A stretch of DNA of 64,000 nt from Desulfovibrio sp. (GTDB lineage Bacteria; Desulfobacterota; Desulfovibrionia; Desulfovibrionales; Desulfovibrionaceae): contig JAISTH010000079.1 in NCBI GenBank assembly GCA_031272715.1, forward strand, positions 2,805 to 66,804. Reading direction: 5' to 3'. Position 1 is the first letter of the stretch; each line of letters begins with the position of its first letter. Below are positions 403-24,131 of this stretch, piece after piece. The notes under the pieces were generated by a model. The model was not told where the DNA came from, searched no databases, and saw only the letters and a program-made list of their open reading frames with translations. The translations under genes and the position numbers were made by a program.

Positions 403-2898
403 TCAGAGCGCACCGTGCTCCGTGCGGGCTATCAGGTCGTTCTGCAGGTCCGGGGACAGATCCACGAAGTAGGCGCTGTACCCGGCGATGCGCACGATGA
501 GGTTCCGGTACTTCCGCGGATCCTTCTGGGCCGCCAGCAGAGTTTCGCGGCTGATGACGTTGAACTGGACGTGCCACAGCTTCAGGTCGCAGAAGGTCCG
601 GATGAAGGCCACCAGCTTCTCCGTGCCCTGGTCACCCTCAAGGCACTTCGGGGTGAACTTGACGTTGAGCATCCGCGCGGCCCGCGCCCGGTATCCCATG
701 TTCTTCGTGTTGAAGTTGGAGAGCATGACGGCGGTGGGCCCGTTCACGTCGGCCCCATGGGAGGCGGAGGAACCGTCCGACAGGGGGAACCATTCCGTGC
801 GGCCGTTGGGGGTGGCGGACACCACCTTGCCGAAGGGCACGTGGGAGGTGAAGGGCACGTAACGGACATCGTTGTGGATGCCCAGATCCTTCATGGAGTA
901 CTTGTCGCCGTACTCCACGGATATCCTGTCGATGTCGCGGCCGATGGCGTCGGCGTAAGGATCGTTGTTGCCGTAGCAGGGGGCGGTGCGCAGGAGGGCC
1001 TTGACGTCCTCGTGCCCCTCGAAGTTGGCGTCGATGGCCGCGAGGAGTTCGTCCATCGTCAGCCGCCGGTCCTCGTAGACCAGCTTCTTCACCGCCGCCA
1101 GGGAGTCCACCACGGTGCCCAGCCCCATGTACTCGAAGTACCCGAAGTCCAGTCCCTCCGGAATGTCCGGCTGGTGCAGGTCGATGCAGTGCTTCATGCA
1201 CAGGTCGTGGATGGCCGACCCCATGGGCTGCGCGAAATGCCGCGCCCGCAGGTCGATGATGATGCGCTGCTGGATGAAGGCGGCCTTCATGAAGAGCAGG
1301 TGCTGCTGCACGTAGGCGTCCCAGAACTGCTCCCAGGTCGCGAAGGAGCGGGGATCCCCGGTTTCGACCCCGAGGACCCGGTCCCCGTACTTCTTCATCC
1401 TGCCGTTGCGCAGCACCATTTCCACGGCCGCGGCGAAGTTGATGTACGCGCCTCCGGAGGTGTAGGTGTCCCGGTTGGGCATGCGGGCCTCGGTGCATCC
1501 GGAGACGGCGTAGTCCAGGGCCTCCTCGAAGGTCGCCCCCTTGGACACGTACAGGGGGACCACTTCCTCGTCGTTGATGAGCTTGGGGAAGCCGGACCCG
1601 TACTTGATCGTCTCGGCCACGTCCCACAGGTAGCGTTCGGGGGCGCGGGAATGGATGCGGGCGGCGAGATCGGGGTAGTGCAGGGGGAATTCCCGCTTGG
1701 ACTTGAGGAAGAGGTAGGTGAGGTCGTTGGAGGCATCGCGGCCGTCGGGGGTCTGCCCGCCGACGGTGACGGCCTCCCAGTGGGCGTAGCCCTCGTTGAA
1801 GGCGCCTCCCGTGGGGGAGATGTACATGTCGATGAATTCCGCCATGCCCACCCACATGCACTCAAGAAGCTCGATGGTCTTGGCGTCGGTGAGGGTGCCG
1901 TCCTCCTTCCCTTTCCTGTAGTAGGGGTAGAGGTACTGGTCCATCCGGCCGTTGGAGATGGTGGTGCCGGTCTTCTGCTCGAGGCGCGAGAACATCTGGA
2001 CGAACCACTGGGACTGGCAGGCCTCGTAGAAGTCCCTGGCGGGCAGTGCGGGCACACGCTCGGCGTTCTCGGCCATGCGCAGGAGTTCGCTCTTGCGCGC
2101 GGGATCGTACTCGATTCCGGCCATTTCCCGGGCCAGGGCCGCGTGGCGTCGCGCCCAGAGGACTATGGCCTCGCTGACGATGATCACCGCCTCGAGGAAG
2201 GGGCGCTTCCTGCAGTAGTCACCGGCGCTCAGGGGGTCCAGGGCGTCCAGCTTCTCCTGCGCCTCCCTGCGGATGTCGTCGAAGCCGCGGCGCAGGACCT
2301 TCTCGTAGTCGTGGACCCACTGGATGGAGGAGCGGAAGGAGGCCGTCTCGTTCACGATGAACCGGGAGACCAGGCCTTCGGGGTCGTCATAGGTGAGCTT
2401 GTGGATCTCGGGAGGCAGGGCGGCGTTGAGGGCCTCGTGGAAGGTCTTGCCCTTCCAGTAGGGGGCGATCTCCTCAACGACCCGTTTCGCGTCCTCCGGG
2501 GTGATGGTGGCCGGGGACGTGGCGCGTGTCGGCAGGTCCCGCACGGCGATGTCCAGGAAGTCCCCGTCCAGTTCCGGATAGAGGATGCCGTAGCGGCCGT
2601 CGCACCCGGCGCGGCCCAGCAGGAGCTGGTCCTGCTGGACGTGGACGGTGATGTTCTCGGCGATGTGCCTAAGCGCCTTCGCCCAGCGCAGCACGAGGGG
2701 CTGGCCTTCGGTCTCGCGCATGGACTGGGTGAAATAGAGGGCGCGTTCGATGTCGATGCGGGGCTTCTGCCCCTCGAAGCGCTCGAGCAGCCGGAACACG
2801 CGGGCGTGGCTCTTGCGGTGCCGGTCCTCCTTGCCGGCCATGGCATCGTACAGGCGCCGTTCCTGGGGTGACAGACAGTCGCAGGGCATCGTATCCAT
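403..2898 (-). CDS. islA: Glycyl radical enzyme, isethionate sulfite-lyase (IslA/IseG) type, 831 aa
   Basis: RBS GGAGG before ATG 2898. Has the glycyl loop RIAGYSAYF and Cys loop SGCTE. Motifs [24 protein letters not shown] and [10 protein letters not shown] match my recollection of Bilophila/Desulfovibrio IslA, including the sulfonate-binding Arg/Gln/Arg. Confidence 0.9.
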
Positions 2899-3059
2899 GT
2901 ATCGTTTCCTCCCGTGCCCCCGGCCCGTCCACCCGGGAGGGGCGGACGGCGGGGAGACAAGTCGATCTTCGAGACGGCCGCCGGGCATGGCGGCGGGACG
3001 CGGATGCGTCCCGGGCCCGTCCGGGTCCTAACGACCGGGCGGACGCCAGGGCGGGTGAA

Positions 3060-4899: not shown

Positions 4900-6018
4900 A
4901 TGAAGAAACTGCTGATCGCCTTCATGTGCGCCGCACTGCTGGCCGTCACCGGCACAGCCGCACAGGCCGCGCAGACCTACGAGCTGAAGATCCAGACGTC
5001 CCTGGCCACCTCCAGCATGTATTTCAGGACCCTTGAACGCTTCAAGAAGAACCTCGAGGCGCTGACCAGCGGCCAGATCAAGGTCGAACTGCTGGCCGAG
5101 GGCGCCGTGGTCAAAGGTTTCGAAGTCTTCGAGGCCGTCAGCGAGGGCATCATCACCGGCGGCATGTCCTGGACCCACTGGGCCTCGGGCAAGCATCCCG
5201 CCGGCGTGCTCTTCTCCGCCCCCGTCGGGGGCCTCGGCCTCGGCCTCGACCAGATAAGCGTCCTGTCCTGGATGTGGGACGGGGACGGCCTCGCCCTGCT
5301 GAACGAGTACTATCAGCAAATGGTGAAGGTGAAGCTGCGGGCCTATCCCGTCCTGCCCATGGGACCGGAGTGCTTCGGATGGTTCCACAAGAAGTACACG
5401 TCCTTCGAGGAGATCAACAAGCTCACCTTCCGGGCCCCGCCCGGAGTGCCCACCGAGGTCTTCAAGGCCATGGGCATGCCCGTCGTCTCCATGCCCGGCG
5501 GCGAGATCATCCCCGCCGCCCAGCGCGGCGCCATCGACGCCGCCGAATGGATCGCCCCGGGAGAGGATCTGCCCATGGGCTTCGCCGAAGTCTGGAAGCA
5601 CTACTACCTGCAGGGCCTCCACCAGGCCATCTCCATCGGCGACGTCTACATCAACATCGAATGGTACGAAAAGCTCCCCGCCAACCTGAAGGCGGCCGTC
5701 GAAGTGGCCATGAAGGCCTGCCTCGCCGACCAGATGCTGGCCAACATCAGCGTCAACTCCAAGGCGCTCCAGACCATGGTCCGGGACAAGGGGGTCATCA
5801 TCGAGGAAACCCCCAAGGAATACTATGCGAAATTCATGCAGGCTACCAAGACCGTGCTGGAAAAGTACATGAAGGATCCCTTCTTCAAGAAGGTCTACGA
5901 CTCGGAACTTGCTTGGGCCAAGATGACGGTCCCCTTCCAGGTCCGTTCCAACGGCCTCTACTACCAGATCGGCAAGACCGCCATGGATGAAGGCGTCATC
6001 ACGGACTACCAGAAGTAG
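4900..6018 (+). CDS. dctP: TRAP transporter solute-binding protein, DctP/TakP-like
   Basis: Signal peptide MKKLLIAF...AAQA. Motifs GWF, FRAPPG, MPGGEIIPAAQRGAIDAAEW typical of TakP/FcbT1-like SBPs. Followed by dctQ and dctM. Confidence 0.9.
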   Translation: MKKLLIAFMCAALLAVTGTAAQAAQTYELKIQTSLATSSMYFRTLERFKKNLEALTSGQIKVELLAEGAVVKGFEVFEAVSEGIITGGMSWTHWASGKHPAGVLFSAPVGGLGLGLDQISVLSWMWDGDGLALLNEYYQQMVKVKLRAYPVLPMGPECFGWFHKKYTSFEEINKLTFRAPPGVPTEVFKAMGMPVVSMPGGEIIPAAQRGAIDAAEWIAPGEDLPMGFAEVWKHYYLQGLHQAISIGDVYINIEWYEKLPANLKAAVEVAMKACLADQMLANISVNSKALQTMVRDKGVIIEETPKEYYAKFMQATKTVLEKYMKDPFFKKVYDSELAWAKMTVPFQVRSNGLYYQIGKTAMDEGVITDYQK

Positions 6019-6024
6019 CACAGC

Positions 6025-6057
6025 CGCCGGGAGAGGGGACGATCCCCTCTCCCGGCG
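6025..6057 (+). other. Stem-loop after the SBP gene (mRNA stabiliser or partial terminator)
   Basis: CGCCGGGAGAGGGGA-CGA-TCCCCTCTCCCGGCG, a perfect 15-bp stem right after the dctP stop. Confidence 0.65.
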
Positions 6058-6090
6058 CCTCTCGTCCACACTCGCGCCAGGGAGGTCCCC

Positions 6091-6678
6091 ATGGCTTCGG
6101 ATGTCGCGGAAAGGCCGGATCCTCGTGTCCCTTCCTCCGTCAGCAAATGCATCTGCATGCTGGACGGCCTGAACGTCGGGGTGGGAAAGATCGCCGCATG
6201 GCTCGCCATCCCCATGATGCTGAGCCTCATCATCGAGGTGGTCATGCGCTACGCCTTCCGGCAGCCCACCATCTGGGCCATGGACATGGCCGTCATCCTC
6301 TACGGCATCCACTTCATGCTGGGGTCGGCCTACTGCCTCAGGGAAGGGCAGCACATCCGCACGGACTTCTTCTATCACAACTGGTCCGTGCGCAAGAAGG
6401 CCGCAGCGGACCTCTTCAACTACATCGTCCTCTTCTTCCCGGCCCACATCGTGTTCTTCTACGTGAGCTGCGGCTATTTCTACAAGTCTTTCGCCCACAA
6501 CGAAACCGCCGTCACGAGTCCTTGGGCCCCCATCATATGGCCTGCAAAACTGGCCATCCCGGTATGCGTGTTCCTGACACTCCTCCAGGGCGTCTCGGAG
6601 GTGCTCAAGTGCATCTACCGATACAAGACCGGCGAGGATCTCTGGCCCGTCTCCGAAATCGCAGAAGCTGAAGACTAA
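6091..6678 (+). CDS. dctQ: TRAP transporter small permease
   Basis: Four hydrophobic segments; EVVMRYAF..PTIWA and GQHIRTD motifs. Confidence 0.9.
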   Translation: MASDVAERPDPRVPSSVSKCICMLDGLNVGVGKIAAWLAIPMMLSLIIEVVMRYAFRQPTIWAMDMAVILYGIHFMLGSAYCLREGQHIRTDFFYHNWSVRKKAAADLFNYIVLFFPAHIVFFYVSCGYFYKSFAHNETAVTSPWAPIIWPAKLAIPVCVFLTLLQGVSEVLKCIYRYKTGEDLWPVSEIAEAED

Positions 6679-6715
6679 ACCTGCGGCCACCCACGCATCA
6701 CGAGGAGCACGCCCC

Positions 6716-8041
6716 ATGGACATGTCCTACAACGAACTGCTCGCCCTGCTTTCCCTGGCCGGGATGTTCGGCGCCTTCTGCCTGGGCTTCCCCATCTCCT
6801 ACACGATGATCTTCAGCGGACTGATCTTCGGCTACCTCGGCATCGGCAAGATCGTCTTCTACCTGCTGACGATGCAGTTCTACCAGGTGATGAGCGACCC
6901 CATCATGGGAGCCATCCCCTTCTTCCTGCTCATGGGATACCTGCTGGAGGGGGCGGGGCTCATGGACAGGCTCTTCAAGTCCTTCCAGCTGCTCTTCGCC
7001 AAGCTCCCCGGATCCCTCTACAGCGCCATCGTCCTCACCGGCACCATCTTCGCCGCCGCCACCGGCATCGTGGGATCGTCGGTGAACCTGCTGTGCATCA
7101 TGTCGGAACCGTCCATGCGGGCCAGCGGCTACAACATCCGCATGGGAGCGGGATGCATCGCCGCCGCGGGAACCCTCGGCATCCTCATCCCCCCCAGCAT
7201 CATGCTGGTGGTGCTCGGCCCCATCATGGGCCTGCCCATCACGGACCTCTTCGCCGCAGCCATCCTGCCGGGCCTGCTGCTGGCCTCCATCTACATCGTC
7301 TACTCCCTGGTCAAGTGCGCCATCTGGCCCGAATACGGCCCGCCCCTGCCCAAGGACATGTGGCCCACGAGCTACCTGACCGTCTTCAAGGAAATGGTCG
7401 TGGGGGTCTTCCCCCTGCTGGTGCTCATCTTCGCCACCCTCGGCAGCATCCTCATGGGCATCGCCACACCCACGGAGGCCTCCGCCTGCGGCGCCTTCGG
7501 CGCCCTGATCCTCGTGATCGCCTACGGCAAGTTCACGTGGAAGAACCTGTCCAAGGCCCTCCACAGCACCATCCTGCTCTCGGCGATGATCCTCGTGATG
7601 ATCGCCTCCTGCAATTTCTTCGGGTCGGTGTTCTCCCGCCTCGGCGGGGCGACATGGCTCTCCAACGCCCTGCTGGCCGTCAACGCCCCGCCCATGCTCA
7701 TGCTCATCCTCATCATGACCATCATCTTCTTCATGGGCTGGGCCATGGAGTGGATCCCCATCGTCCTCATCCTGATCCCCCTGCTCATGCCCGTGGTGGA
7801 CGCCATGGGCTACGACAAGCTGTGGTACTGCCTCGTGGTGGCCGTCACCCTGCAGACCTCCTGGCTGTCCCCGCCCGTGGCCCTCTCCTGCTACTTCATC
7901 AAGGGGAGCCTGCCCCACTGGAAGCTGGTGGACATCTACAAGGGCATGTTCCAGTACATCTTCTGCCAGCTGCTGGGGCTGGCGCTGATCATCCTCTTCC
8001 CCGCCATCGTGACCTTCCTGCCCCAGTGGTTCAAATCCTGA
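6716..8041 (+). CDS. dctM: TRAP transporter large permease
   Basis: AIPFFLLMG, GTLGILIPPSI, TPTEA and SPPVA motifs; highly hydrophobic. Confidence 0.93.
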   Translation: MDMSYNELLALLSLAGMFGAFCLGFPISYTMIFSGLIFGYLGIGKIVFYLLTMQFYQVMSDPIMGAIPFFLLMGYLLEGAGLMDRLFKSFQLLFAKLPGSLYSAIVLTGTIFAAATGIVGSSVNLLCIMSEPSMRASGYNIRMGAGCIAAAGTLGILIPPSIMLVVLGPIMGLPITDLFAAAILPGLLLASIYIVYSLVKCAIWPEYGPPLPKDMWPTSYLTVFKEMVVGVFPLLVLIFATLGSILMGIATPTEASACGAFGALILVIAYGKFTWKNLSKALHSTILLSAMILVMIASCNFFGSVFSRLGGATWLSNALLAVNAPPMLMLILIMTIIFFMGWAMEWIPIVLILIPLLMPVVDAMGYDKLWYCLVVAVTLQTSWLSPPVALSCYFIKGSLPHWKLVDIYKGMFQYIFCQLLGLALIILFPAIVTFLPQWFKS

Positions 8042-8054
8042 GGGGCGACGGGAG

Positions 8055-8846
8055 ATGTTCGGGACATCCGCCATGCACGGGACCGCTCGCCGCATCCGCC
8101 TTCCGCTCCTGCTGGCGGCGATGCTCTGTCTCGCCCTCGCGGCCGGTTCCGCGGCCGCGGCCACGGACGGAAAGGGCGCGCCCAAGGCAGGGACCGGGAC
8201 GACGACGGCCAAGGGCAATGCGGACGCCACCCCGGCCGGGACGTCCCCGGCGCTTTTCGGGGAGTTCCGATACAACGCCCCGAAGGCGGAAATCGCAGCC
8301 CTGAAAGATGCCGTCCCCGCCGAAGGGGAGTTCGCCGGGGACATCCTGCTGCCCCCGGCCGACTTCGCCGGACACCGATGGACGCCGCGGCTGTCCTTCG
8401 ACGGGGACCGGCTCGTCCGGGTCAGCCTGATGGCCCGGGTTCCCGCCCTGGAATCCGAGCGCCTGGAGGCGGTCCGCGGCCATCTGGCGAAGGAAGGGTA
8501 CGAGGTGCTGGGGCTCGTGGCCGACGGGAAGACCCTGGACTGCATCTCCCGCCTCAAGATCGGCTACGCCACCACAGGGGACGCCCCGGCGGCCCTCGCG
8601 AAGGACATGGCGAAGTTCCTCGAAGGCCGGCACGCGCGGATCACCTACGCATGGTTCGACACGAAGGGCCTCTCCCGGGAGAACAAGCGCACGGCCCGCA
8701 ATCTCGGGGACTTCCTCGTGCTGGCCCCCGCCGAGACCCGTGAGGCGGAGGTCACCCTGATCCCGGACCCCGGGGGCAAGGAGGCAATGCTCCTCGTGGA
8801 CTTCACCTACCCGATCCTTGACGCGATGCGGAACGGCCAGAAATGA
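8055..8846 (+). CDS. Hypothetical exported protein
   Basis: Operon-internal ORF with host-like codon usage; RRIRLPLLLAAMLCLALAAGSAAA signal peptide followed by an Ala/Thr-rich linker. Start may be 8073. Confidence 0.7.
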   Translation: MFGTSAMHGTARRIRLPLLLAAMLCLALAAGSAAAATDGKGAPKAGTGTTTAKGNADATPAGTSPALFGEFRYNAPKAEIAALKDAVPAEGEFAGDILLPPADFAGHRWTPRLSFDGDRLVRVSLMARVPALESERLEAVRGHLAKEGYEVLGLVADGKTLDCISRLKIGYATTGDAPAALAKDMAKFLEGRHARITYAWFDTKGLSRENKRTARNLGDFLVLAPAETREAEVTLIPDPGGKEAMLLVDFTYPILDAMRNGQK

Positions 8847-8946
8847 GGCGACCAGGCGCATCCCGAGGCGACCTCCGTCGCGCCGGCGATGCCACGGTCG
8901 GAACGGACCCCGGACATCACCGAAGCCCCCAACGACGAGGTTCCCA

Positions 8947-9876
8947 ATGAAGATCATCGACTTCCGCTTCCGCCCCAACACGGCCGAGGTCCTGGACGGC
9001 ATCAGGAACAGTTCCATGTTCAAGGCCACCTGCGAGGCCATCCACTTCGAGCGGCGCGTCCCCCAGACCCTCCCCCAGATCGTCGCCGACCTGGATCGCC
9101 GGGGCGTCGAACTCTCGGTGATCACGGGCAGGGACTGCGAGACGACATACGGGTTCCCCGCCAACAACGGCAGCGTCCTCTCCTTCGTGAAGGCCTATCC
9201 CGACAAGTTCGTGGGCTTCTGGGGGATAGACCCCCACAAGGGCATGAACGCCGTGCGGGAGATCGTCCATGCCGTCGAGACCGACGGCATGCGGGGCATC
9301 GCCATCGACCCCTATCTCGCCCACATCCCGCCCCACGAGGCGAGGTACTACCCCCTCTACGCGAAGTGCTGCGAACTCGGGATCCCCGTCTTCGTCACCA
9401 CCGCGCCCCCGCCCCAGGTCCCCAGGGCCGTGATGGACTACGTGGATCCCCGCCACGTGGACATCGTCGCCCGGGACTTCCCGGAACTCACGATCATCAT
9501 GAGCCACGGGGGCTACCCCTTCGTGAACGAGGCCGTCTTCGCCTGCATGCGCAACGCCAACGTGTACATGGACCTCTCCGAATACGAACTCGCCCCCATG
9601 GCGGACGTCTACGTCCAGGCCCTCAACACGGCCATCGGCGACAAGGTCGTCTTCGCCAGCGCCCATCCCTTCGTGGAACAGGCCGAGGCCATCGACATCT
9701 ATCGGAAGCTGAAGCTCACCGAGGAGGTCCGCCGCAAGGTCATGTACGAGAACGCCCGGCGCATCCTCGGCCTCGCGAAGGACGAGGCGCCGAAAACCCG
9801 AAGGGTGGCCGGCCTCTCCCAGGAAATGCCCGTGCCCTATCTTCCCTTCTGTCCGGCCGGGAACCGGCCCCGCTGA
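8947..9876 (+). CDS. Amidohydrolase_2 family protein
   Basis: RBS GAGG before ATG 8947. Motifs YPDKFVGF, YPLYAKCCELGIPV, FPELTIIMSHGGYP, NVYMDLS, DKVVFAS and RKVMYENARRIL. Confidence 0.85.
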   Translation: MKIIDFRFRPNTAEVLDGIRNSSMFKATCEAIHFERRVPQTLPQIVADLDRRGVELSVITGRDCETTYGFPANNGSVLSFVKAYPDKFVGFWGIDPHKGMNAVREIVHAVETDGMRGIAIDPYLAHIPPHEARYYPLYAKCCELGIPVFVTTAPPPQVPRAVMDYVDPRHVDIVARDFPELTIIMSHGGYPFVNEAVFACMRNANVYMDLSEYELAPMADVYVQALNTAIGDKVVFASAHPFVEQAEAIDIYRKLKLTEEVRRKVMYENARRILGLAKDEAPKTRRVAGLSQEMPVPYLPFCPAGNRPR

Positions 9877-9879
9877 TCC

Positions 9880-11235
9880 ATGCCCTCCCCTCTCGCCAGG
9901 GACGCCTTCCTGAAGGCCGTGCGGGACGCCGGGGTCGTCGGCGAAGGCGGCGCGGGCTTCCCCGCCCACGCCAAATACGCAGGGACCGCTGACACGGTCA
10001 TCGCCAACGCCTGCGAATGCGAACCCCTGCTCCACACCGACCGCCATCACATGGAGCATTCCGCGGAACAGGCGATGCTGGCCCTGAAACAGGTGGCGGC
10101 GGCCTGCGGCGCCAGGCGGGTCGTCTTCGCCATGAAACGCAAGCACGCGGATCTGGTCCCGGCCATCGAGGCGTCCTGCAGGGCGCATGGGACGGAACTC
10201 GCGCTGCTTGACGACTTCTACCCCGCAGGGGACGAGCAGGTGCTGGTGCGGGAGGTGACGGGCCGCTCGGTTCCGGCCCTGGGGATTCCCCTGGCCGCCG
10301 GATGCCTCGTCGCCAACGTGGGGACGCTGGTGAGCGCCTATGGGGCGATGAGAAACGTCCCCGTGACCCACAAGACCCTGACGGTGACGGGAGAGGTGCG
10401 GCAACCCGGCATCCTCAGAGCGCCCGTGGGCACGCCCATGGCCGAATGCCTCGCTGCGGCCGGAGGCGCCGCCACGCCGGACCCGGTCTTCATCCTCGGC
10501 GGTCCCATGATGGGACGCCTCGTGGACGGCCCGGAAGCCCTCGCCGCCGAGCACGTCGCCAAGACCGACGGCGGGCTCGTGGTCCTGCCACGAGGGCACG
10601 CCCTGCACCGCAACGCCGCCCAGCGTGTGGAACACATGCGCCGCAGGGCCGCCTGCGCCTGCATCCAGTGCCGATTCTGCTCCGATCTCTGCCCCCGGGC
10701 GCTGCTGGGGCAGCCCTTCGAGACCCACAGGGTCATGAAGGCCTTCGGCATGGGGATGGAACTCGCCGGGGAGGCGGGGAGGATGGCGATGCTGTGCAGC
10801 GGTTGCGGCGTCTGCGAACACTACGCCTGTCCCATGGGACTCTCCCCCCGCCGCATCAACCTCGCCGTCCGCAAGGCCATGTCCGGGTCCAAGACGCCCT
10901 ACGGCGGACCCACCGCCCCCGACGAAGCGCGGACCGCCAACAGGGACGTGCGCAAGGTGCCTCTGGGGCGCCTCGCCATGCGGCTGGACGTCCACAGGTA
11001 CATGGACCTCGCGACGCCTTTCCTTGGCACCCTCGAGCCTTCCCGGGTGCGCATCCCCCTGAACCGCCACATCGGCGCCCCGGCCGTCCCCTGCATCGCC
11101 CCGGGGCAGCGGGTCGAGGAGGGGGCATGCATCGGGGACATCCCGGAAGGGGCCCTCGGAGCGAGGGTCCACGCCAGTCTCGCCGGCACCGTGATCGCCG
11201 TGGACGACGGAGTGACCATCAGGAGGCAGCCATGA
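9880..11235 (+). CDS. pduS: PduS-like flavin/Fe-S oxidoreductase (RnfC-like; SLBB and 2x[4Fe-4S])
   Basis: AGVVGEGGAGFP, NACECEP, GGPMMG, CIQCRFCSDLCP, CSGCGVCEHYACP and a C-terminal HIGAPA..VHAS domain; sits next to pduT. Confidence 0.87.
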   Translation: MPSPLARDAFLKAVRDAGVVGEGGAGFPAHAKYAGTADTVIANACECEPLLHTDRHHMEHSAEQAMLALKQVAAACGARRVVFAMKRKHADLVPAIEASCRAHGTELALLDDFYPAGDEQVLVREVTGRSVPALGIPLAAGCLVANVGTLVSAYGAMRNVPVTHKTLTVTGEVRQPGILRAPVGTPMAECLAAAGGAATPDPVFILGGPMMGRLVDGPEALAAEHVAKTDGGLVVLPRGHALHRNAAQRVEHMRRRAACACIQCRFCSDLCPRALLGQPFETHRVMKAFGMGMELAGEAGRMAMLCSGCGVCEHYACPMGLSPRRINLAVRKAMSGSKTPYGGPTAPDEARTANRDVRKVPLGRLAMRLDVHRYMDLATPFLGTLEPSRVRIPLNRHIGAPAVPCIAPGQRVEEGACIGDIPEGALGARVHASLAGTVIAVDDGVTIRRQP

Positions 11236-11789
11236 GGGAAGACTCCCGTGCGGTGGGGATGCTGGAATTCACGAGCATCGCGGCGGGGATGGACGCCTCC
11301 GACCGGATGGTCAAGGCCGCCTCCATCGAGCCCGTCTTCTTCAAGACGGTCTGTCCCGGCAAGTTCCTCGCCTGCGTGGCCGGGGACGTGGCGGCCGTCG
11401 AGGCGTCCATGGAGGCGGGAAGGGCGGGGGCGGGGCCGCTTGTCGCGGACTGGTTCCTGCTCCCGAACATCCATCCCGACGTGACGACGGCGCTGGGGGG
11501 CGTCGGCATGGACATCCCGGTGGAGGCGCTGGGGATACTGGAGACGTACTCGGCGGCATCCATCGTGGCCGCCGCGGACGCGGCGGTTAAGGCCGCGAGG
11601 GTCCGGCTGCTGGACATCCGTCTGGCCATGGGACTTGGCGGCAAGGGATACACGCTCTTCACCGGCGACGTCGCCGCGGTGGAGGCATCGGTTGAGGCGG
11701 GAGCCCGGAGTGCCGCGGAAGCGGGGCTGCTGGTGGGCAAGGTGGTCATCCCGAGGCCCGCCGAGGCCTTCTGCAGGCAAGTGCTCTGA
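11232..11789 (+). CDS. pduT: BMC-T shell protein, PduT-like (tandem BMC domain)
   Basis: AVGMLEFTSIAAG...KTVCPGKF (conserved pore Cys)...ALGILETYS...GLGGKG...VIPRP. ATG overlaps the pduS stop. Confidence 0.9.
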   Translation: MREDSRAVGMLEFTSIAAGMDASDRMVKAASIEPVFFKTVCPGKFLACVAGDVAAVEASMEAGRAGAGPLVADWFLLPNIHPDVTTALGGVGMDIPVEALGILETYSAASIVAAADAAVKAARVRLLDIRLAMGLGGKGYTLFTGDVAAVEASVEAGARSAAEAGLLVGKVVIPRPAEAFCRQVL

Positions 11790-11829
11790 CGCCTGCGGGC
11801 GCCGGACGGGACGAGGACAGGGAGCGAAA

Positions 11830-12990
11830 ATGGCAGCGGGGACTGGCGGACAGGGCTTGTCGACGGGTGCGTCCGGAAGGCGCGCCGTCACCGCCGAGGA
11901 CGTGCGCGACGCCCACCTGCGGGGACTGCGGGAGATTCCCGTCCCCCAAGGGGTCCTCGTGACCCCCCTGGCCCGGGACGTCGCCAAGGAGCACGGCGTG
12001 CTCCTCGCGCAACCCCTCCCCGGGAGCCCCATGGAACCGCCGTCCCCTCACACCGCCAGGCCCCCCTTGCCGCCCCTTCCCGGACAGGTGACGCTCCGCG
12101 CGGGTCAGCCGCTTCCCGATGGCGCATCCCCGCCAAGGACCGCCGACACGTCCACGGCAACCGCTCGCGGCAAAGCCAAGCGCCCCGGCACCCAGCCGCC
12201 CCCCAACCCCAACCGGCATCACCCCCCTGGAGGCCGCATGCTGTTCCTCACCGAAGACGACATACGCCAACGCGGCATCCCCGAGGGCGGAGAACTCGTC
12301 CTCTGCGCCACGGAGCGGCTGACCCCCTCCGCCAGCAGCTACGCCACCCAGCTGCAGCTCCGGGTGGTCGAGGCCGAAGGCCCCCAGTGCCCCGAACGGC
12401 AGGCGCAGACATGCCCGGAGGATGCCTCCAAGGCCCCCTCCGATCCCTCCGAGACGGGCCTGACCCACCTCGATGCCGCCACCATGGTGCCGAAGACCCA
12501 TCCACGCATCGAGGCCCGCGGCAAGCTCGACACCCTGGTATCGGAAATCGTCCTGGTCCAGACCCTCTTCGACCCCAAACGAAAACTCCCCGCCCTGCTC
12601 CTCGAATGCCTCGCCGACCTCAAGGAATGGGCCTTCCAGACCCTCGCCGCGGAAGTCTCCGGCAGTCTCCTCCCGCGCCAGACCATGGCCGGCATGGACC
12701 CCGAAACCCTCCGGGCGGTCTCCCGCAACCCCGGCAGATACCTGAACGCGGAGCATCTGGCCCCGGACGCCTCCATGGGGACGAATCTCGCCCTCCTGAA
12801 CCGGCTGCGCGCCCTCGTGCGGGAGACGGAACTCGCAACGGCAAGGGCGGCCCTCACCCGGGGCGACATACAGCAGTCCCTGAACAGGCTCTCCAGCGCC
12901 GTCTACGTCCTCATGCTCCTGACGCACCTCGCCGAGAGCGGCGCCCCGCTCCCCACATCCGGCATCGCCGCCGACGGGGGCAAGGACTGA
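11830..12990 (+). CDS. eutT: EutT-like cob(I)alamin adenosyltransferase (core 12238-12990) with an in-frame N-terminal extension from 11830
   Basis: Core motifs [46 protein letters not shown] and LNRLSSAVY resemble EutT. Both ATG 11830 (GGAG) and ATG 12238 (GGAGG) have an RBS. Confidence 0.75.
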
Positions 12991-12994
12991 CATC

Positions 12995-14011
12995 ATGGGC
13001 GTCATGGAACGCTGCAAGGCCAAGTGCCGAGGACAAGGGGCCATCGTCGTCTTCGCCGAGGGCGAGGACCGCCGGGTGGTCGAGGCGGCCGTCGCCCTGA
13101 ACCGGGAAGGACTGGTCCACCCTCTGCTCATGGGCAGAGCTTCCATCCTGCTGGATCTGCTCAACCAGACGGCCCGCCTCGGCGAACGCCTCGACGCCCT
13201 CGACCCCGCCGACCCGCACCTGCTCGCCATGAACGCCGAGGCGCTCCTCGCCCTCGCCGCCGAACGAGGCAAACCCATGAACGCCGACGAGGCCCGCTCC
13301 GCCGCGCGCACCCCCCTCACGGCCGCCTGCCTTCTGGTCAGGCAGGGGAAAGCCACCTGCGGCGTCGCCGGGAACCTCTCCCCCACCGCCGACGTGCTGC
13401 GCGCGGGCCTGCGGATTCTCGGCACCACCCGGGACTTGCGGACGGTGTCCGGATTCTTCCTCATGCTGGCCCCGGAGGAACGGCAGGTCTACGTCTTCGC
13501 CGACGCCGGGGTCGTTCCCGAACCCACCGCGGAACAGCTCGCCGACATCGCCATCGCCTCGGCACGGCAGTGCCGGCGCCTGCTGGACGCAACGCCCCGT
13601 GTGGCGATGCTGTCCTTCTCCACCAAGGGCAGCGCCGACCACCCCCGGGTGGACCACGTCCGGCGGGCCCTGGCCCTCGTGCGGGAACGCGCGCCGGAAC
13701 TCGCCGTCGACGGCGAACTCCAGCTCGACGCGGCCGTCTGCCCGGACGTCGCCCGCCTGAAAGGCGTCGACGGCCCAGTGCAGGGAGACGCCAACGTCCT
13801 CGTCTTCCCGGGGCTGGAAGCGGGGAACATCGGCTACAAGATCGCCCAGCGCCTGGGAGGCTACACGGCCCTCGGGCCGCTCCTGCAGGGCCTTGCCGGG
13901 GGATGGCACGACCTCTCCCGGGGATGCTCGGCGGGAGACGTCCACGACATCGCCCTGCTGGGGGCGACGCTGGCCCTTGCGGAACAGGGGGAACAGGCCG
14001 GGGCGGCCTGA
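12995..14011 (+). CDS. eutD: Phosphotransacetylase, EutD/Pta type
   Basis: [45 protein letters not shown] and DLSRGCS. Confidence 0.92.
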
Positions 14012-14077
14012 CGCCCTCCCCAACCTGCGGGCGAAACGCCCGCCAACGCCAACAACCGAACCACAAGGAGACGGGAC

Positions 14078-14356
14078 ATGGATGCACTCGGCATGATCGA
14101 AACGCGGGGACTCGTCGCCCTCATCGAGGCGGCCGACGCCATGGTGAAGGCGGCCCGGGTCGTCCTCATCGCCTACGAGCAGATCGGGGGCGGCTACGTG
14201 ACGGCCATCGTGAGAGGCGACGTCGCGGCCTGCAAGGCGGCGACGGACGCCGGAGTGAACGCGGTGCAGCGCCTTGGCGGCGAGCTCGTGGCCGTGCACG
14301 TGATCCCCAGGCCCCACGCGGACCTGGAGGAGGTCTTCCCCATCCGGAAGAAGTAG
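14078..14356 (+). CDS. eutM: BMC-H hexameric shell protein (EutM/PduA-like)
   Basis: ALGMIETRG...AADAMVKAA...GGGYVT..RGDVAA..HVIPRPH. Confidence 0.95.
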
Positions 14357-14472
14357 CCGGCCGACATCGGTCGAACGCATAGATGCGGACCTGGCGCCCA
14401 TGCGGGCCGAAGTGCCCGGTTCCCCGCCTTCCAGGCGCGGGGCGCCACAGATTCGTCTTCCGGGAGGACGCC

Positions 14473-14760
14473 ATGGAACTCGCGAAGGTCGTGGGGCAGG
14501 TGGTGGCAACCGCCCGCGCCCCCGGACTGCCCAGCAACACCCTCCTGCTGGTGCGGTTCGTGGACGAAAAGGGGGAACCCTGCGGAGGCTGCCACGTGGC
14601 GGCCGATCCGGTGGGGGCCGGCGAGGGGGAGTGGGTGCTGACCGTGCGGGGCAGTTCCGCGCGGTGCGCCATCGACATGGACGCCCCGCTGGATCTGGCG
14701 GTGGTCGCCATCGTCGACAGCGTCGGATCCGCTGCCGAGACGCTCTACAGAAAGAACTGA
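14473..14760 (+). CDS. eutN: BMC-P pentameric vertex protein (EutN/CcmL)
   Basis: RBS GGAGG; MELAKVVGQVVAT...VAADPVGAGEGEWVL..GSSAR..D..VVAIVD. Confidence 0.95.
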   Translation: MELAKVVGQVVATARAPGLPSNTLLLVRFVDEKGEPCGGCHVAADPVGAGEGEWVLTVRGSSARCAIDMDAPLDLAVVAIVDSVGSAAETLYRKN

Positions 14761-14949
14761 CGAACGGCCGCGGCGCCCCTGGATCGCGGCGGCGACGCCG
14801 CGGTCCGGGCATGCGCCCCTTGACGCGCAACGGGAACGCCGACGAAACCCGCGGCGCGCCCGAACGCAGGACGACGACGCTCCGGGCCGCCCCACGGCCC
14901 CGGAGACGCGCCCGTCAACCGTCCCGGCCCCATGCCGGCGGAGACAGAC

Positions 14950-16368
14950 ATGGAAATGCAGGAACAGGACGTGGAACGCATCGTGAGCGAGGTGCTGAAA
15001 CGCCTCGGCACCCCCGGCAGGGAAACGCCGGTCGCGGCCCAGGACGACCTCGGCCTCTTCGCGTCGCTTGACGATGCCGTGGAGGCCGCCTCGCGCGCCT
15101 ACCGGAAGGTGTCCACCCTCAGGGTGCGCCGGGAGGTGATCGCGGCCATCCGCAAGGCGGGCAAGGAACACGCCCAGTCCCTGGCGGAACTCGCCGTCCG
15201 GGAGACGGGCATGGGACGGGTCGCGGACAAGCTGGCGAAGAACATCCTGCAGGCCGAGTCCACCCCGGGACCCGAAGCCCTGGTCCCCAGGGCCATGTCC
15301 GGGGACGCCGGTCTGGCCCTGGAGGAGAACGCGCCCTGGGGCGTCGTCGCCTCGGTCACCCCCTCCACCAATCCAGCCGCCACGGTCGTCAACAACGCCA
15401 TCAGCATGATCTCCGCCGGCAACGCCGTCGTCTTCGCCCCCCATCCGAACGCGAAGCAGACGTCCCAGACCGCCATGCAGACGCTGAACAAGGCCATCCG
15501 GGACGCGACGGGCATAGAGCACCTGCTGTGCGCGGTCCGGGAACCCTCCATCGAGACGGCGCAACGCCTCTTCGCCCACCCCGGCGTGAAACTGCTGGTG
15601 GTCACGGGCGGGGAAGGGGTGGTCGCCGCCGCCCGCAAGCACGCCACCATGCGCCTCATCGCCGCCGGCGCCGGCAATCCCCCGACGGTCGTGGACGAAA
15701 CCGCCGACATCCCCCGGGCCGCCAAGGGCATCCTCGCCGGGGCGAGCTTCGACAACAACATCATCTGCGCCGACGAGAAGGAGATCATCGCCGTGGACGC
15801 CGTCGCGGACCGGCTCAAACGGGAACTGGCCGCGCAGGGAGCCTGCGAGATCACCCTCCCCCAGGCGGAGACCATCGCCAGGTTCGCCCTCCGGGACCAC
15901 CCCGGGCCATCGCCCGCCGCCAACCCCAAATGGGTGGGCAGGGACGCCTCCCGCATCGCCCGCGAGGCGGACATCCACGTCCCCGACACATGCCGGATGC
16001 TCTTCGTGGACGTCGGCCGGGACATAGACCACCCCTTCGCCCGGGTGGAACAGATGATGCCGGTGCTGCCGCTCCTGCGGGCCCGGAACGTCGACGAGGC
16101 CATCGAATGGGCCCTGATCCTGGAACGGGGGCTCTCCCACACGGCGGGGATCCACTCGAGGAACATCGACAACATGCACGCCATGGCCCTCGCCATGAAC
16201 ACCAGCCTCTTCGTCAAGAACGGCCCCCACGTCGCGGCCCTTGGCGTCGGCGGGGAGGGCTGGACGTCGATGACCATCTCGACCCCGACAGGGGAAGGGG
16301 TCACCTCGGCGCGCACCTTCGTGCGCATCAGGCGGTGCGTCCTCGTCGACAGCTTCCGCATCGTCTGA
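14950..16368 (+). CDS. eutE: CoA-acylating aldehyde dehydrogenase (EutE/PduP) with N-terminal encapsulation peptide
   Basis: N-terminal amphipathic helix DVERIVSEVLKRL; PSTNP, VTGG, AGAGNPP, SFDNNIICADEK and TPTGEG. Confidence 0.93.
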   Translation: MEMQEQDVERIVSEVLKRLGTPGRETPVAAQDDLGLFASLDDAVEAASRAYRKVSTLRVRREVIAAIRKAGKEHAQSLAELAVRETGMGRVADKLAKNILQAESTPGPEALVPRAMSGDAGLALEENAPWGVVASVTPSTNPAATVVNNAISMISAGNAVVFAPHPNAKQTSQTAMQTLNKAIRDATGIEHLLCAVREPSIETAQRLFAHPGVKLLVVTGGEGVVAAARKHATMRLIAAGAGNPPTVVDETADIPRAAKGILAGASFDNNIICADEKEIIAVDAVADRLKRELAAQGACEITLPQAETIARFALRDHPGPSPAANPKWVGRDASRIAREADIHVPDTCRMLFVDVGRDIDHPFARVEQMMPVLPLLRARNVDEAIEWALILERGLSHTAGIHSRNIDNMHAMALAMNTSLFVKNGPHVAALGVGGEGWTSMTISTPTGEGVTSARTFVRIRRCVLVDSFRIV

Positions 16369-17351: not shown

Positions 17352-19700
17352 TCATGCGGGGCTTTCGGCACGCTCCCGGGCCTTGTCCGCCTCCTTCTCC
17401 TTTCCCAGGGCCTTCAGCGCCTTGGCCAGCATCATCCACCCTTCCGGACGATCCCAAAGCGAGAGGCTCCTGCGGGCGAGAATCTCCACGATGGACGGAT
17501 CCTCGCCCCCCTCGAGATACCGCTCCGCAAGCATGAGCATGGCGACGGGATCCTGGGGATTGCGACGCAGCGCCTCGTGGAGCAGTTCCCGCGCCTCCTC
17601 CCCTCCGCGACGGCTCACGGCGAGCCTCGCCAGCAAACGGGCGCCGATCCCGGCATGCGCCGGATAGGAGCCTTCCAGCTCGGAGGCCTTCTCGTAATGC
17701 TCCCGGGCCTTGTTCCTCCTGCCACTGCGCTCGTGAAGCTGCCCGAGCCGGACGTGGGCGAAGAGATGCCCGGGTGACGCCGCGAGACACGCGCGATAGT
17801 GGTTGAAGGCCGCGCGCACGTGCCCGATGCGCTGGCAGACGGTCCCTAGGTTGTACTGCACCTGCCCCGCCAGCGTCGCATCCGCGCAGGCGAGCGCCTT
17901 GAGAAAGTGCCGCTTCGCCTCCGTGTGCTTCCCCAGCACCGCCATGCAGATCCCGAGGGAGTTCCAGGCCATGGCGTTGCGGTCGTCCGCCAGCAATGCG
18001 AGCTTGTACTCGTCGATGGCCCCGAGGACGTCCCCCTGGCTGTAGAGACGGTCGGCATGGATGTTGATGGCCAGGGAATCGAAGGGCGCAACCCTGGTGC
18101 CCTCCAGCAGCATGGCGCATTCCAGCGCCTTCACGACGCACTCCCGCATCTCGTCCCTGGTGAGGTGCAGGAAGGGGAAACCGGCAAGGCCAATGGCGCA
18201 GCCCAGGCCTGCCTCCTCGAGATCCCCGTGGAGCGCCCGGTAGACGGGCAGCAGCCGCGAAACGTCGGTCTCCGGATGGAAGAAGGCCAAACCGTTGCTC
18301 CCGTACTCCCCGACCAGCGTCCCGGCCGTCGAAGGCATGCGGCGCATCCACGCGGGCATCGCGTCAACGTGCCTGCCGGCCTCGTCCATGCGCACCACTG
18401 CGAGGACGAAGGCGCGGCACCGGCCCTGCTCTTCCGCGACCCGCCTGAAGAACGAGCCGAGGCTGAGACGCTCGGGGCTCCCCTCCTCGCCCTCGGCCCC
18501 TTGCACCGATGCGTCGGCTCCATCCTTCCCATCCTGAGCGGCCTTCTCTCCCGCGGCGTCCCAGTCGCCTTCCAGCAGCACGAGACCGTCCCCCTGGGCG
18601 GGAAGTCTCGCGGGATCTGCCACGTGCATGAGCTCCGCGAGGGATTCCCGGTCCCGCACCTCGATGACGAAGAGTTCCGCGATGTCCCCGTCCTCGTCGT
18701 CCTGCACCGCGAACCGCTGCCCTTCCCGGGCCCCTGTCTGGCGGCCGAGGGAAATCACGTAGCGGCCCGGGGCCTCGCGGAACAGCACCCTGCCTCCCTC
18801 CCGCACGATGTGGGCATAGGCCATGACGGGCCTCGCCCCCCCGAGTTCCGCCGTCCGCGAGGCGACGTCGGCGGCGAGCCGGGCCCTGGACATGAACCTG
18901 CGGGACTGCTCGTACATGGACAGCGCCATGGACGAGCCGTGCAGATCCTGGGGATAGACGGCATGGCCGGCGCACAGGCTCAGAGGGATGTGCGCCGCCG
19001 ACTGCCCCACGAGAAGCACCTTCGACATCGCCTTGAGGATCTCGCCGGCCAGTTCATGGCAGGCCATCCTCCCCCCGGCGGGCAGCAGCAGGGCGAACTC
19101 GTCCGGCCCGGATCTCGCCGCCGTCACGTCCGACGGCAGGACGCTCCGCGCCGCCGCCGCAAGTTCGCGCAGGGCCGCATCGTGGAAGCCGAAGCCCTCC
19201 CGCAGCAGTTGGTCCGCATTGACGATGCGCACGACCACCAACCCCATGAACAGTTCCGGGAAGGAGGACATCGGCCGGGCCGGCCCCTCGGGGGTCTCAA
19301 GAAAATCCCGCACGCCCGCCGCCGCCGCCTCGATCTCGGCATACAGCGTCGGCTCCGTGAACAGCCCCGTGATGGGGTCGGTCCGCATCGCCTTGGCATA
19401 GGCCAGCTTCTCGAGGCACAGCTTCGCCATGCCGGGCAGCAGGGAACGCAGAGGGGTCAGTTCCCGGGTTCGCACGCCGTTCGCCATGAACACGCCGAGC
19501 TGCGAGTTCCGCCACTGCAGCGGAAGCAGCAGACGCCGCTCCCGAGGAAGCAGCACCGGGCCGTCGGGGGCGTTGGCGGTGGGGAAGTACAGAGCGTGCC
19601 CCGTGAAGGAGAAGCAGTTGGAAAGGCTTTCGCACAGCAGCCCTTCCATCTCGAGAAGGTCGTTGCGGGTAAGGTCGACGGTCAACCGCGTGTCGGGCAT
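17352..19700 (-). CDS. Degenerate GGDEF-domain / TPR-repeat protein
   Basis: TDPITGL...ARSGPDEFALL (GPDEF), a second degenerate GGDEF-like segment, and C-terminal TPRs (AWNSLG, YNLG, HVRLG). Confidence 0.75.
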   Translation of the reverse strand: MPDTRLTVDLTRNDLLEMEGLLCESLSNCFSFTGHALYFPTANAPDGPVLLPRERRLLLPLQWRNSQLGVFMANGVRTRELTPLRSLLPGMAKLCLEKLAYAKAMRTDPITGLFTEPTLYAEIEAAAAGVRDFLETPEGPARPMSSFPELFMGLVVVRIVNADQLLREGFGFHDAALRELAAAARSVLPSDVTAARSGPDEFALLLPAGGRMACHELAGEILKAMSKVLLVGQSAAHIPLSLCAGHAVYPQDLHGSSMALSMYEQSRRFMSRARLAADVASRTAELGGARPVMAYAHIVREGGRVLFREAPGRYVISLGRQTGAREGQRFAVQDDEDGDIAELFVIEVRDRESLAELMHVADPARLPAQGDGLVLLEGDWDAAGEKAAQDGKDGADASVQGAEGEEGSPERLSLGSFFRRVAEEQGRCRAFVLAVVRMDEAGRHVDAMPAWMRRMPSTAGTLVGEYGSNGLAFFHPETDVSRLLPVYRALHGDLEEAGLGCAIGLAGFPFLHLTRDEMRECVVKALECAMLLEGTRVAPFDSLAINIHADRLYSQGDVLGAIDEYKLALLADDRNAMAWNSLGICMAVLGKHTEAKRHFLKALACADATLAGQVQYNLGTVCQRIGHVRAAFNHYRACLAASPGHLFAHVRLGQLHERSGRRNKAREHYEKASELEGSYPAHAGIGARLLARLAVSRRGGEEARELLHEALRRNPQDPVAMLMLAERYLEGGEDPSIVEILARRSLSLWDRPEGWMMLAKALKALGKEKEADKARERAESPA

Positions 19701-23971: not shown

Positions 23972-24131
23972 TCTGCGAACCCTCCTGGATGGTTGTGCTC
24001 TTGGCCCGGGGGGATGGCATGAGGATGGCATGGCCGTGAACGCGCGATTGGAGCTTTGCGGCCTCGATGCGCACAAGGGTGCCGCTTCGAGGCCCATCTC
24101 CGGGCGGTGCGCCGAACCATGCAGGCAATTA

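Follow-up and report, generated by a model that had tools for sequence, protein, structure and literature searches.

Why does a locus for isethionate degradation carry an amidohydrolase that has lost the residues with which its superfamily binds metal? This question is raised by a stretch of 64,000 nucleotides (hereafter the window) from Desulfovibrio sp. (GenBank assembly GCA_031272715.1, contig JAISTH010000079.1, positions 2,805 to 66,804 of the forward strand). In the window, the gene of a 309-residue protein of the Amidohydro_2 family (hereafter the amidohydrolase) lies in a microcompartment operon, near the gene of a glycyl radical enzyme (GRE) that resembles the C-S lyase IslA. Respiration of isethionate, taurine and 2,3-dihydroxypropane-1-sulfonate (DHPS) by Bilophila and Desulfovibrio is one of the main routes by which hydrogen sulfide arises in the gut. 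Published pathways name an importer, a lyase, an activase and a regulator only, and the amidohydrolase is the fifth gene of the minimal isethionate module. An earlier reading of the window from its letters alone (hereafter the sequence-only reading) had pointed out the altered motif of this protein and had proposed several roles for it. The analysis in this study showed that the amidohydrolase is a real, conserved and uncharacterised accessory of sulfonate C-S lyase systems. It belongs to a known superfamily, and its reaction is testable and potentially new.

Loss of the metal ligands in a conserved subfamily

The reading frame of the amidohydrolase contains no internal stops and begins with MKIIDFRFRP. 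Its G+C content at third codon positions (GC3) is 0.90, in a window of 65% G+C, and a Shine-Dalgarno sequence (GAGG, positions 8937-8940) lies six bases 5' of the ATG. The translation matched Amidohydro_2 (PF04909) with an E value of 1.4e-37 and 130 bits, the cut-off being 26.4, and no NCBIfam model matched it. The Pfam profile covers residues 73-276 only; strand 1 was therefore judged from alignments. In the MAFFT alignments with HxH-type relatives, the two strand-1 His columns hold R7 and R9, the strand-5 His ligand is replaced by T151, and the strand-8 Asp by A239. Among the family active-site residues checked (HxH, strand-5 His, strand-6 His and strand-8 Asp), H187 of strand 6 is the only one that is kept. 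All four canonical metal ligands are thus replaced (Arg7, Arg9, Thr151 and Ala239), and the exchange of HxH for RxR in IIDFRFRP and the changes in VFVTT and FASAHP had been read correctly from the sequence. An assignment to the metal-dependent bile salt hydrolases of Bilophila was rejected. Those enzymes are secreted Amidohydro_3 proteins with a signal peptide and HxH...H...H...D ligands (PMC13081902, PMC13081988), whereas here only PF04909 matches and the ligands are absent.

The spread of these replacements was examined in 117 full-length sequences, drawn from the top 150 matches when 1.84 billion cluster representatives were searched; this sample is biased towards relatives of the query. 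The strand-1 His columns read R-x-R in 68 of the 117 and H-x-H in 16, with other residues in the remaining 33. In the strand-5 column, 71% of the RxR set have Thr, whereas all HxH members (100%) have His. At strand 8, the column holds Ala in the RxR set and Asp in most HxH members, and the H187 column is invariant in both sets alike. In 98 aligned RxR sequences, down to 27% identity, D5, R7, R9 and H187 are all invariant. R62 and Y138 were specific to the RxR type in the alignment. Since the four substitutions covary and the four residues are invariant, the pattern cannot be ascribed to chance or decay. On these alignments, the RxR signature is a trait of a large, coherent and conserved subfamily, not the mark of a degenerate gene.

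The AlphaFold2 (AF2) model, with a mean predicted local distance difference test (pLDDT) score of 93.4, consists of eight strand/helix repeats that form a barrel over residues 1-277. On this model, the amidohydrolase is confidently predicted to be a well-folded Amidohydro_2 TIM barrel. The best match in the PDB was BB4693 of Bordetella bronchiseptica (3IRS/3K4W, 'uncharacterized TIM-barrel protein'; phmmer E value 5.6e-33 over residues 1-279). The entry 3IRS was also the top Foldseek match of the model, with template modelling (TM) scores of 0.76/0.83. Like the amidohydrolase, BB4693 shows the replacements (IIDFRLRP, IPVIMMTGG and FGTAYP) and keeps the His of the SHG motif. Unlike the amidohydrolase, it has no C-terminal tail, and its host is an aerobe without these lyases. 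The Foldseek identity is 27%, and the two proteins differ at the candidate pocket positions 121-124, 209-215 and 240. No relevant literature was found for BB4693, 3IRS or 3K4W. The entry 3IRS has been in the PDB without a function since 2009, and the amidohydrolase offers a handle on a large uncharacterised subfamily.

Five metal-dependent cog2159 enzymes, among them decarboxylases, a hydratase and a C-C hydrolase (gamma-resorcylate decarboxylase, 2DVT; LigW, 4QRN; ACMSD, 2WM1; LigJ, 6DXS; LigY, 5VN5), have the same fold and belong to the same Pfam family. Over the matches listed, they aligned with the AF2 model at Foldseek E values of 1e-13 to 1e-11, TM scores of about 0.6 and identities of 13-21%. 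These enzymes have the His of strand 6 and several structural motifs in common with the amidohydrolase. They hold their metal, however, by the HxH motif, the strand-5 His and the strand-8 Asp, all of which are replaced in the amidohydrolase.

Linkage and co-inheritance with IslA/HpsG-type lyases

Orthologue loci were defined as the best 80 genome loci, with identities of at least 68%. Most of those that extend far enough hold a GRE of the IslA/HpsG clade, 73-88% identical to the GRE of the window, and many of the loci without a GRE are short contigs. Microcompartment genes are absent from about half of the 80 loci. In the D. falkowii-type loci (L048 in our numbering of loci, where G and C denote genomes and contigs), only a five-gene module is found, with unrelated genes beyond it. 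In this module, the genes of a sigma54 enhancer-binding protein (EBP), an activase and the GRE are divergent from those of the amidohydrolase and an MFS transporter. The amidohydrolase goes with the lyase, irrespective of the shell.

The same association is seen among paralogues. Those of 41-68% identity, found in Desulfovibrionaceae genomes and metagenome contigs, adjoin GRE and activase genes, TRAP or MFS importers and sigma54 regulators. Every GRE beside them passes the cut-off of the NCBIfam model NF048011, and one of these paralogues adjoins HpsG of B. wadsworthia. The clade of at least 41% identity is tied to C-S-cleaving GREs of the IslA/HpsG type. Amidohydrolases beside HpsG-like GREs group by themselves, and the paralogue pattern fits a joint duplication of the amidohydrolase and the GRE, to which shared species history contributes. 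The pairwise identities of the amidohydrolases and their neighbouring GREs were correlated (r=0.92, Mantel p=0.001), but this correlation is confounded by species phylogeny and carries little weight for co-evolution.

The phyletic distribution was analyzed in 201 sampled genomes of Desulfovibrionaceae, with presence of the amidohydrolase set at E<=1e-60. The amidohydrolase was found in 58 genomes and the GRE in 60; both were present in 57 and neither in 140. The single genome with the amidohydrolase and without the GRE is 58% complete. In a sample of 401 genomes from the whole phylum, the amidohydrolase was present in all 14 genomes with a GRE of at least 1289 bits. These 14 include members of two other families, in which the two genes are adjacent. 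Related genomes are not independent, and no probability is quoted for these counts; the pattern nevertheless extends over about 30 genera.

In D. vulgaris Hildenborough, DVU2820 ('amidohydrolase family protein', Kazakov 2015) was predicted to have its own sigma54 promoter, under the same EBP (the DVU2827 regulon) as the 'PFL' operon DVU2822-2825 (PMC4641369). The neighbourhood of DVU2820 resembles that of the window, with a TRAP transporter, a GRE (then PFL, now IseG/IslA) and an activase. DVU2820 is equated with the gene of the window by its description in that paper, not by alignment. In DVU2820-like loci without a microcompartment, the orthologues end at about 277 residues and have no tail. 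We consider it highly probable that the amidohydrolase is a dedicated accessory of the lyase.

Several observations on related loci were made in the course of this survey. The HpsG region of B. wadsworthia ATCC 49260 (L087 and L082; contig ends C21 and C144) apparently holds two amidohydrolase paralogues, 48% and 48-49% identical to that of the window. If the contig ends join as the gene order suggests, one lies after TRAP genes beside the activase and the other is divergent from hpsG. In some Desulfovibrionaceae (G038, G083, G063, G171 and G190), NF048011-positive GREs of about 1465-1500 bits have no nearby or detectable amidohydrolase. NF048011-positive GREs of 1000-1200 bits also occur without it in other families of Desulfobacterota (G250, G275, G287, G321, G353, G441, G497 and others). 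Such GREs are natural controls for the role of the partner. At two loci (L092:2849-8892 and L095:7969-14016), a GRE of 1300-1345 bits (NF048011) is followed by a longer GRE-like gene (851-862 residues, 772-883 bits), and each of the two GRE genes has its own activase. L095 also holds a TRAP system and a 551-residue Amidohydro_3 protein; proteins of this kind were recently found to cleave taurine conjugates by hydrolysis. These double-GRE loci may represent an uncharacterised sulfonate pathway.

C-terminal tails and microcompartments

Orthologues in loci without shell genes are 275-284 residues long, versus 303-334 residues where shell genes are present. Among the copies of at least 55% identity, 40 come from a fetched locus with shell genes, and every one of them is tailed. 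The 29 copies with no shell genes within 5 kb on either side are tailless. Three tailed copies have no shell genes in the fetched flank; BMC-domain genes were found about 10 kb away on the same contig in one case and on other contigs in the other two. D. piger has a tailless copy, and its genome contains no BMC-domain gene. Tails occur only on copies in genomes with microcompartment shell genes.

The tails are of two types. In the window, in Bilophila and in their relatives, a variable linker is followed by P[LM]P[FY]xPFxP..R. In a sister clade of 57-67% identity (L103-L112), the tail ends in an amphipathic helix, for example DMVADIVREVLARL. The maximum helical hydrophobic moment is 0.50 for the tail of the window versus 0.63-0.81 for the helical tails. 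The tail of the window contains six Pro residues, and AF2 gives it no secondary structure (pLDDT 56-60). The existence of two unrelated types argues that targeting was selected for independently. When the window was translated in all six frames, the P[LM]P[FY]xPFxP motif was found only once, in the amidohydrolase itself. The possibility that the tail is a peptide shared with other cargo was rejected on this ground. As a candidate address label for microcompartments, the Pro/aromatic tail would be of a second kind, and it could serve for cargo loading in engineered shells.

The supplement of Sutter 2021 lists, for GRMguf loci, a PF04909 class (HMM04909amidhy_1_grmguf) and a 32-position hidden Markov model (HMM) of its encapsulation peptide, with the helical consensus ..DaqeiQsIIEnVIaq... 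This consensus is amphipathic and, compared by eye, unlike the Pro/aromatic tail of the window and Bilophila. Supplementary Data 2 and 6 of the same study also hold a PF04909 class (HMM04909amidhy_2_mic3) for the microcompartment type MIC3, beside an aldehyde dehydrogenase and reportedly without encapsulation peptides. The orthologue of B. wadsworthia is HMPREF0179_00649, with 72% identity, and the gene order of the two loci is the same (amidohydrolase-pduS-pduT...Pta-BMC-H-EutN-AldDH-IslA). This orthologue has been listed only as a 'hypothetical protein, predicted amidohydrolase', beside a PduS homologue (PMC8667426, Burrichter 2021), and the text of PMC8667426 does not report it as present in purified microcompartments. 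We infer that the extension brings the amidohydrolase into or onto the isethionate microcompartment, and the protein is probably associated with the microcompartment here. Since the amidohydrolase is co-inherited with the GRE in 57 of the 58 genomes in which it occurs, co-duplicated with it and tailed where the pathway is compartmentalised, it very likely does something that the pathway needs in vivo.

Earlier publications already show the gene as part of the Bilophila cluster, predict its co-regulation by sigma54 in D. vulgaris and include a catalogue entry with a helical encapsulation peptide. The likely cargo status of the PF04909 family in GRMguf loci is thus on public record. Neither Burrichter 2021 nor Sutter 2021 mentions the lost metal ligands or a link to lyase loci without microcompartments. 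In the literature searched, we found no account of complete metal-ligand loss as a subfamily signature, or of the second, Pro/aromatic type of tail. Nor did we find there the near one-to-one co-inheritance with IslA/HpsG regardless of microcompartments, with its paralogue-for-paralogue pairing.

RxR proteins outside sulfonate loci

In the locus survey, distant RxR proteins of 28-43% identity were not specific to sulfonates. B. wadsworthia contains at least four modules (L096, L127 and L128; contigs C9, C57 and C5) in which a TAXI-TRAP transporter is combined with a BB4693-like RxR amidohydrolase and a flavoenzyme of 630-770 residues (Oxidored_FMN/Pyr_redox_2). These modules carry GAF-sigma54 regulators, and the trio recurs in metagenome contigs (L099-L101). 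It is thus a repeated module, possibly a reductive one. The BB4693-like members examined adjoin TAXI-TRAP or Tct transporters and flavoenzymes of the old yellow enzyme (OYE) type. Other RxR proteins lie with a citrate/sulfate-symporter-type carrier, a metallo-beta-lactamase-fold protein, an OYE-type enzyme and an Fe-ADH, or with TctABC/TctC, a thiamine diphosphate (ThDP) enzyme and an OYE-type enzyme, or with an ABC importer of the SBP_bac_5 type. The common theme of the RxR loci is an organic-anion importer with a key redox or radical enzyme, which suggests simple acid/base chemistry on small anions.

The RxR motif had been taken as a possible mark of sulfonate chemistry, to be doubted if such homologues proved common outside sulfonate loci. 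For the whole family they are common there, in the TAXI-TRAP/OYE, Tct and ABC contexts described above, and RxR alone is no such mark. For the amidohydrolase's own clade, of at least 41% identity, the association with sulfonate lyases stands.

Candidate active site and proposed reaction

The candidate pocket was assembled from the strand C-termini in the DSSP string of the model, not from coordinates. It comprises D5/R7/R9, R62/D63, D95/H97/K98, D121/Y123, T151, H187, S211/E212/Y213/E214 and S238/H240. The sequence-only reading had proposed a metal-poor, cationic pocket. The loss of the metal ligands agrees with the first part of this proposal, but the pocket would not be simply cationic, since the conserved D63, D95, D121, E212 and E214 accompany R7, R9, R62 and K98. 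In the alignment, the pocket residues are almost identical in the IslA- and HpsG-linked copies and different in other clades. IslA yields acetaldehyde and HpsG yields hydroxyacetone, and sulfite is the only product that they share. Together with the near-identical pockets, this favours a role linked to sulfite. Placement with the lyase inside the compartment would further indicate chemistry in the lumen.

We therefore propose the following scheme. The amidohydrolase would act where IslA acts, by virtue of its tail, as a metal-independent acid/base catalyst on the product side of the lyase reaction. His187 and/or Asp5 would serve as the base, and the cluster of Arg7, Arg9 and Arg62 would grip the SO3 group. 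As a candidate reaction, carbonyl-bisulfite adducts would be split, namely 1-hydroxyethanesulfonate, formed from acetaldehyde and sulfite, and the hydroxyacetone adduct in HpsG systems. Such cleavage would return sulfite for respiration and the aldehyde for the CoA-acylating dehydrogenase. The adduct of acetaldehyde with bisulfite is tight and slow to come apart at neutral pH, and a closed compartment in which both are produced in equal amounts would favour it. In the cleavage of cyanohydrins, a base takes the proton of the alpha-hydroxyl group and cationic residues stabilise the anionic leaving group; splitting of the bisulfite adduct would be the sulfite counterpart. The hydroxynitrile lyases are a functional analogy only, with no kinship to the amidohydrolase in sequence or fold.

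These considerations make a co-inherited lyase accessory, targeted to the compartment here and acting as a metal-free catalyst on the product side, the best overall explanation, which we hold tentatively and at slightly less than an even chance. That its chemistry concerns sulfite or its adducts on the product side is possible, though on balance rather unlikely. Among specific reactions, a carbonyl-bisulfite adduct lyase, or related handling of sulfite, ranks first by analogy and is itself a tentative proposal of low probability. Reversal of the aldehyde-bisulfite adduct had been suggested from the sequence, and among the roles suggested there it best fits the tail that goes with microcompartments and the near-identical pockets. 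The full picture would be a metal-free alpha-hydroxysulfonate lyase with an arginine cluster in place of the metal, packaged with IslA by a proline/aromatic tail and preventing the mutual trapping of acetaldehyde and sulfite. In all these particulars together it is doubtful. If adduct handling were indeed the function, it would explain how the cells keep both their electron acceptor and their carbon product. An adduct lyase would be a new enzyme activity and a missing fifth step of anaerobic sulfonate respiration. It would also be a new type of reaction in a well-studied superfamily, with arginines standing in for the catalytic metal.

Alternative explanations

It is worth noting that the loss of all four metal ligands could be explained in another way. 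The amidohydrolase may be a non-catalytic pseudoenzyme, either a stoichiometric binder of an anion such as sulfite or a sulfonate, or a scaffold or adaptor by which IslA is organised in the cell or the compartment. Microcompartments do use enzyme-like scaffolds, and the tail could be a docking element. The residues D5, R7, R9 and H187, however, are invariant throughout the family, even in loci without a GRE or a shell, which speaks for a conserved site for a small molecule and not for a surface specific to a partner. In addition, the gene is equally conserved where no compartment exists, and a stoichiometric binder would be unable to match the respiratory flux of sulfite. We therefore regard a pseudoenzyme as unlikely. 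Much the same low probability is given to another reaction on the product side or in maintenance, by which, for example, NAD+ or flavin would be freed of sulfite adducts, or a sulfonated by-product would undergo an isomerase or hydratase reaction. This reading shares the evidence of linkage to the lyase; the data do not point to any particular substrate. The superfamily includes an isomerase and the hydratase LigJ, and the repeated pairing of distant relatives with OYE-type ene-reductases suggests addition/elimination or isomerisation on organic anions.

An enzyme on the substrate side is improbable. Such an enzyme would make the substrate of the lyase from an imported compound, be it a conjugate or another precursor (an acyl-isethionate, an N-acyl-taurine, a carboxylated sulfonate or the opposite enantiomer of DHPS). 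The binding proteins of these loci take free isethionate (dissociation constant 0.5 uM) or S-DHPS, and cells grow on free sulfonates (PMC6453916, PMC13335735). Since IslA and IslB also work in vitro in the absence of the amidohydrolase, a role in preparing the substrate is unlikely. B. wadsworthia uses only S-DHPS, so that no racemase is at work (PMC13335735). Targeting to the compartment would place the protein with the lyase, not at the membrane, and for a hydrolysis there are neither metal ligands nor an obvious nucleophile. The hydrolase that frees isethionate from a conjugate, as suggested in the sequence-only reading, is unlikely for the same reasons, and the taurine-conjugate hydrolases of Bilophila belong to the different, secreted Amidohydro_3 family (PMC13081902, PMC13081988). 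In favour of the substrate side are the frequent position of the gene directly after transporter genes, the distant relatives encoded between the permease and the binding protein of a TAXI-TRAP transporter, and the nearest characterised relatives, which are decarboxylases and a hydratase. Less probable still is a general microcompartment or PduS-linked helper for the recycling of cofactors or electrons, unrelated to sulfonates. In the window and in Bilophila, pduS comes directly after the gene, and the spacing of 4 nucleotides suggests translational coupling (PMC8667426). This role was rejected, since neither pduS nor shell genes are present at the loci of about half of the orthologues. D. piger, moreover, is devoid of BMC-domain genes, and the clade was not seen beside other types of GRE in the loci examined.

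Several facts weigh against a co-inherited, compartment-targeted catalyst on the product side of the lyase. The spontaneous dissociation of the adduct is one of them, the need for an enzyme being an argument from equilibrium constants and not a result. The hydroxyacetone adduct is weaker, yet the HpsG loci keep the amidohydrolase gene. The wider RxR family works in loci without sulfite chemistry, and the Arg residues may just occupy the place of the metal, in salt bridges with conserved acids such as D/E121. As modelled, the tail of the window is not a canonical encapsulation peptide. Three of the 201 Desulfovibrionaceae genomes have the GRE without the amidohydrolase, and so do 11 genomes from elsewhere in Desulfobacterota, whose GREs score lower (997-1202 bits). 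In vitro, the activity of IslA and IslB does not depend on the amidohydrolase (PMC6386719, PMC6453916), which bears out the earlier remark that the canonical isethionate pathway does not need it. In the literature searched, there was no biochemical, proteomic or genetic datum on the amidohydrolase, and no function, mutant or purified protein. The supplements of Burrichter 2021, Hanson 2021 and Peck 2019 contain no proteomic or mutant data on its gene. Published tests of G20 transposon mutants cover Dde_1270 and Dde_1272-1275 only, and the amidohydrolase gene is not among them.

Organisation of the locus and identity of the lyase

The features of the locus are collected in Table 1. The genes of the operon are arranged in the order group III alcohol dehydrogenase, DctPQM, an exported 263-residue protein, amidohydrolase, PduS-like, PduT-like and EutT-like proteins, Pta, BMC-H, EutN and aldehyde dehydrogenase. 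With BMC-H, BMC-T, BMC-P, an aldehyde dehydrogenase, Pta and an IslA-type GRE, the locus is a microcompartment of the GRMguf (isethionate) type.

Table 1. Positions of the amidohydrolase, its motifs and the neighbouring genes in the window
Feature	Position	Strand	Basis
RxR-type Amidohydro_2 protein, open reading frame (309 residues and stop)	8947..9876	+	translation, GC3, Shine-Dalgarno sequence
Predicted TIM-barrel domain, residues 1-277	8947..9777	+	AF2 model, Foldseek
Strand-1 motif D5-F-R7-F-R9-P10, in place of canonical D-x-H-x-H	8959..8976	+	alignments
T151 codon (VFVTT), strand-5 metal His column	9397..9399	+	alignments
H187 codon (SHGGYP), strand-6 His, kept	9505..9507	+	alignments; invariant in RxR and HxH types
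A239 codon (FASAHP), strand-8 Asp column	9661..9663	+	alignments
C-terminal tail, residues 278-309, predicted disordered	9778..9873	+	orthologue lengths, AF2 model
Tail motif P-V-P-Y-L-P-F-C-P (family pattern P[LM]P[FY]xPFxP)	9829..9855	+	comparison of orthologue tails
IslA-type glycyl radical C-S lyase (GRE), functional partner	403..2988	-	profiles, identities
DctP/DctQ/DctM TRAP importer, upstream in the same operon	4900..8041	+	profiles
PduS-like flavin/FeS protein	9880..11235	+	ATG 4 nucleotides past the amidohydrolase stop
Rest of the microcompartment operon (PduT-like, EutT-like, Pta, BMC-H, EutN/BMC-P, aldehyde dehydrogenase)	11232..16368	+	

The GRE of the window, whose gene is divergent from the operon, was named HpsG by NF048011 ('(2S)-3-sulfopropanediol dehydratase'), with 1512 bits. 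The same model, however, gave 1553 bits to IslA of D. piger and 931 bits, over 522 residues, to a fragment of B. wadsworthia IslA. Since published IslA enzymes score well above the cut-off, the HpsG label was rejected as a discriminator, and annotation pipelines that use this model will mislabel IslA as HpsG. The GRE of the window is 77% identical to the GRE of the B. wadsworthia IslA locus versus 62% to its HpsG paralogue, and is therefore IslA-like; HpsG and IslA are themselves 60.6% identical (PMC8397734). The name IslA, which the sequence-only reading had given to the neighbouring lyase, is thus reasonable.

Three other genes of the window deserve mention. Between dctM and the amidohydrolase, the 263-residue protein (8055-8846, plus strand) has a signal-like N-terminus and no Pfam or NCBIfam match. 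Its relatives, of 28-54% identity, recur with this type of TRAP transporter in other loci (L007, L047, L058, L071-L073, L078 and L079). Past the microcompartment operon, positions 17352-19700 (minus strand) encode a 782-residue protein with TPR repeats and a weak match to GGDEF. A full-length catalase gene follows at 22466-24097 (minus strand), in a genome of the anaerobe type.

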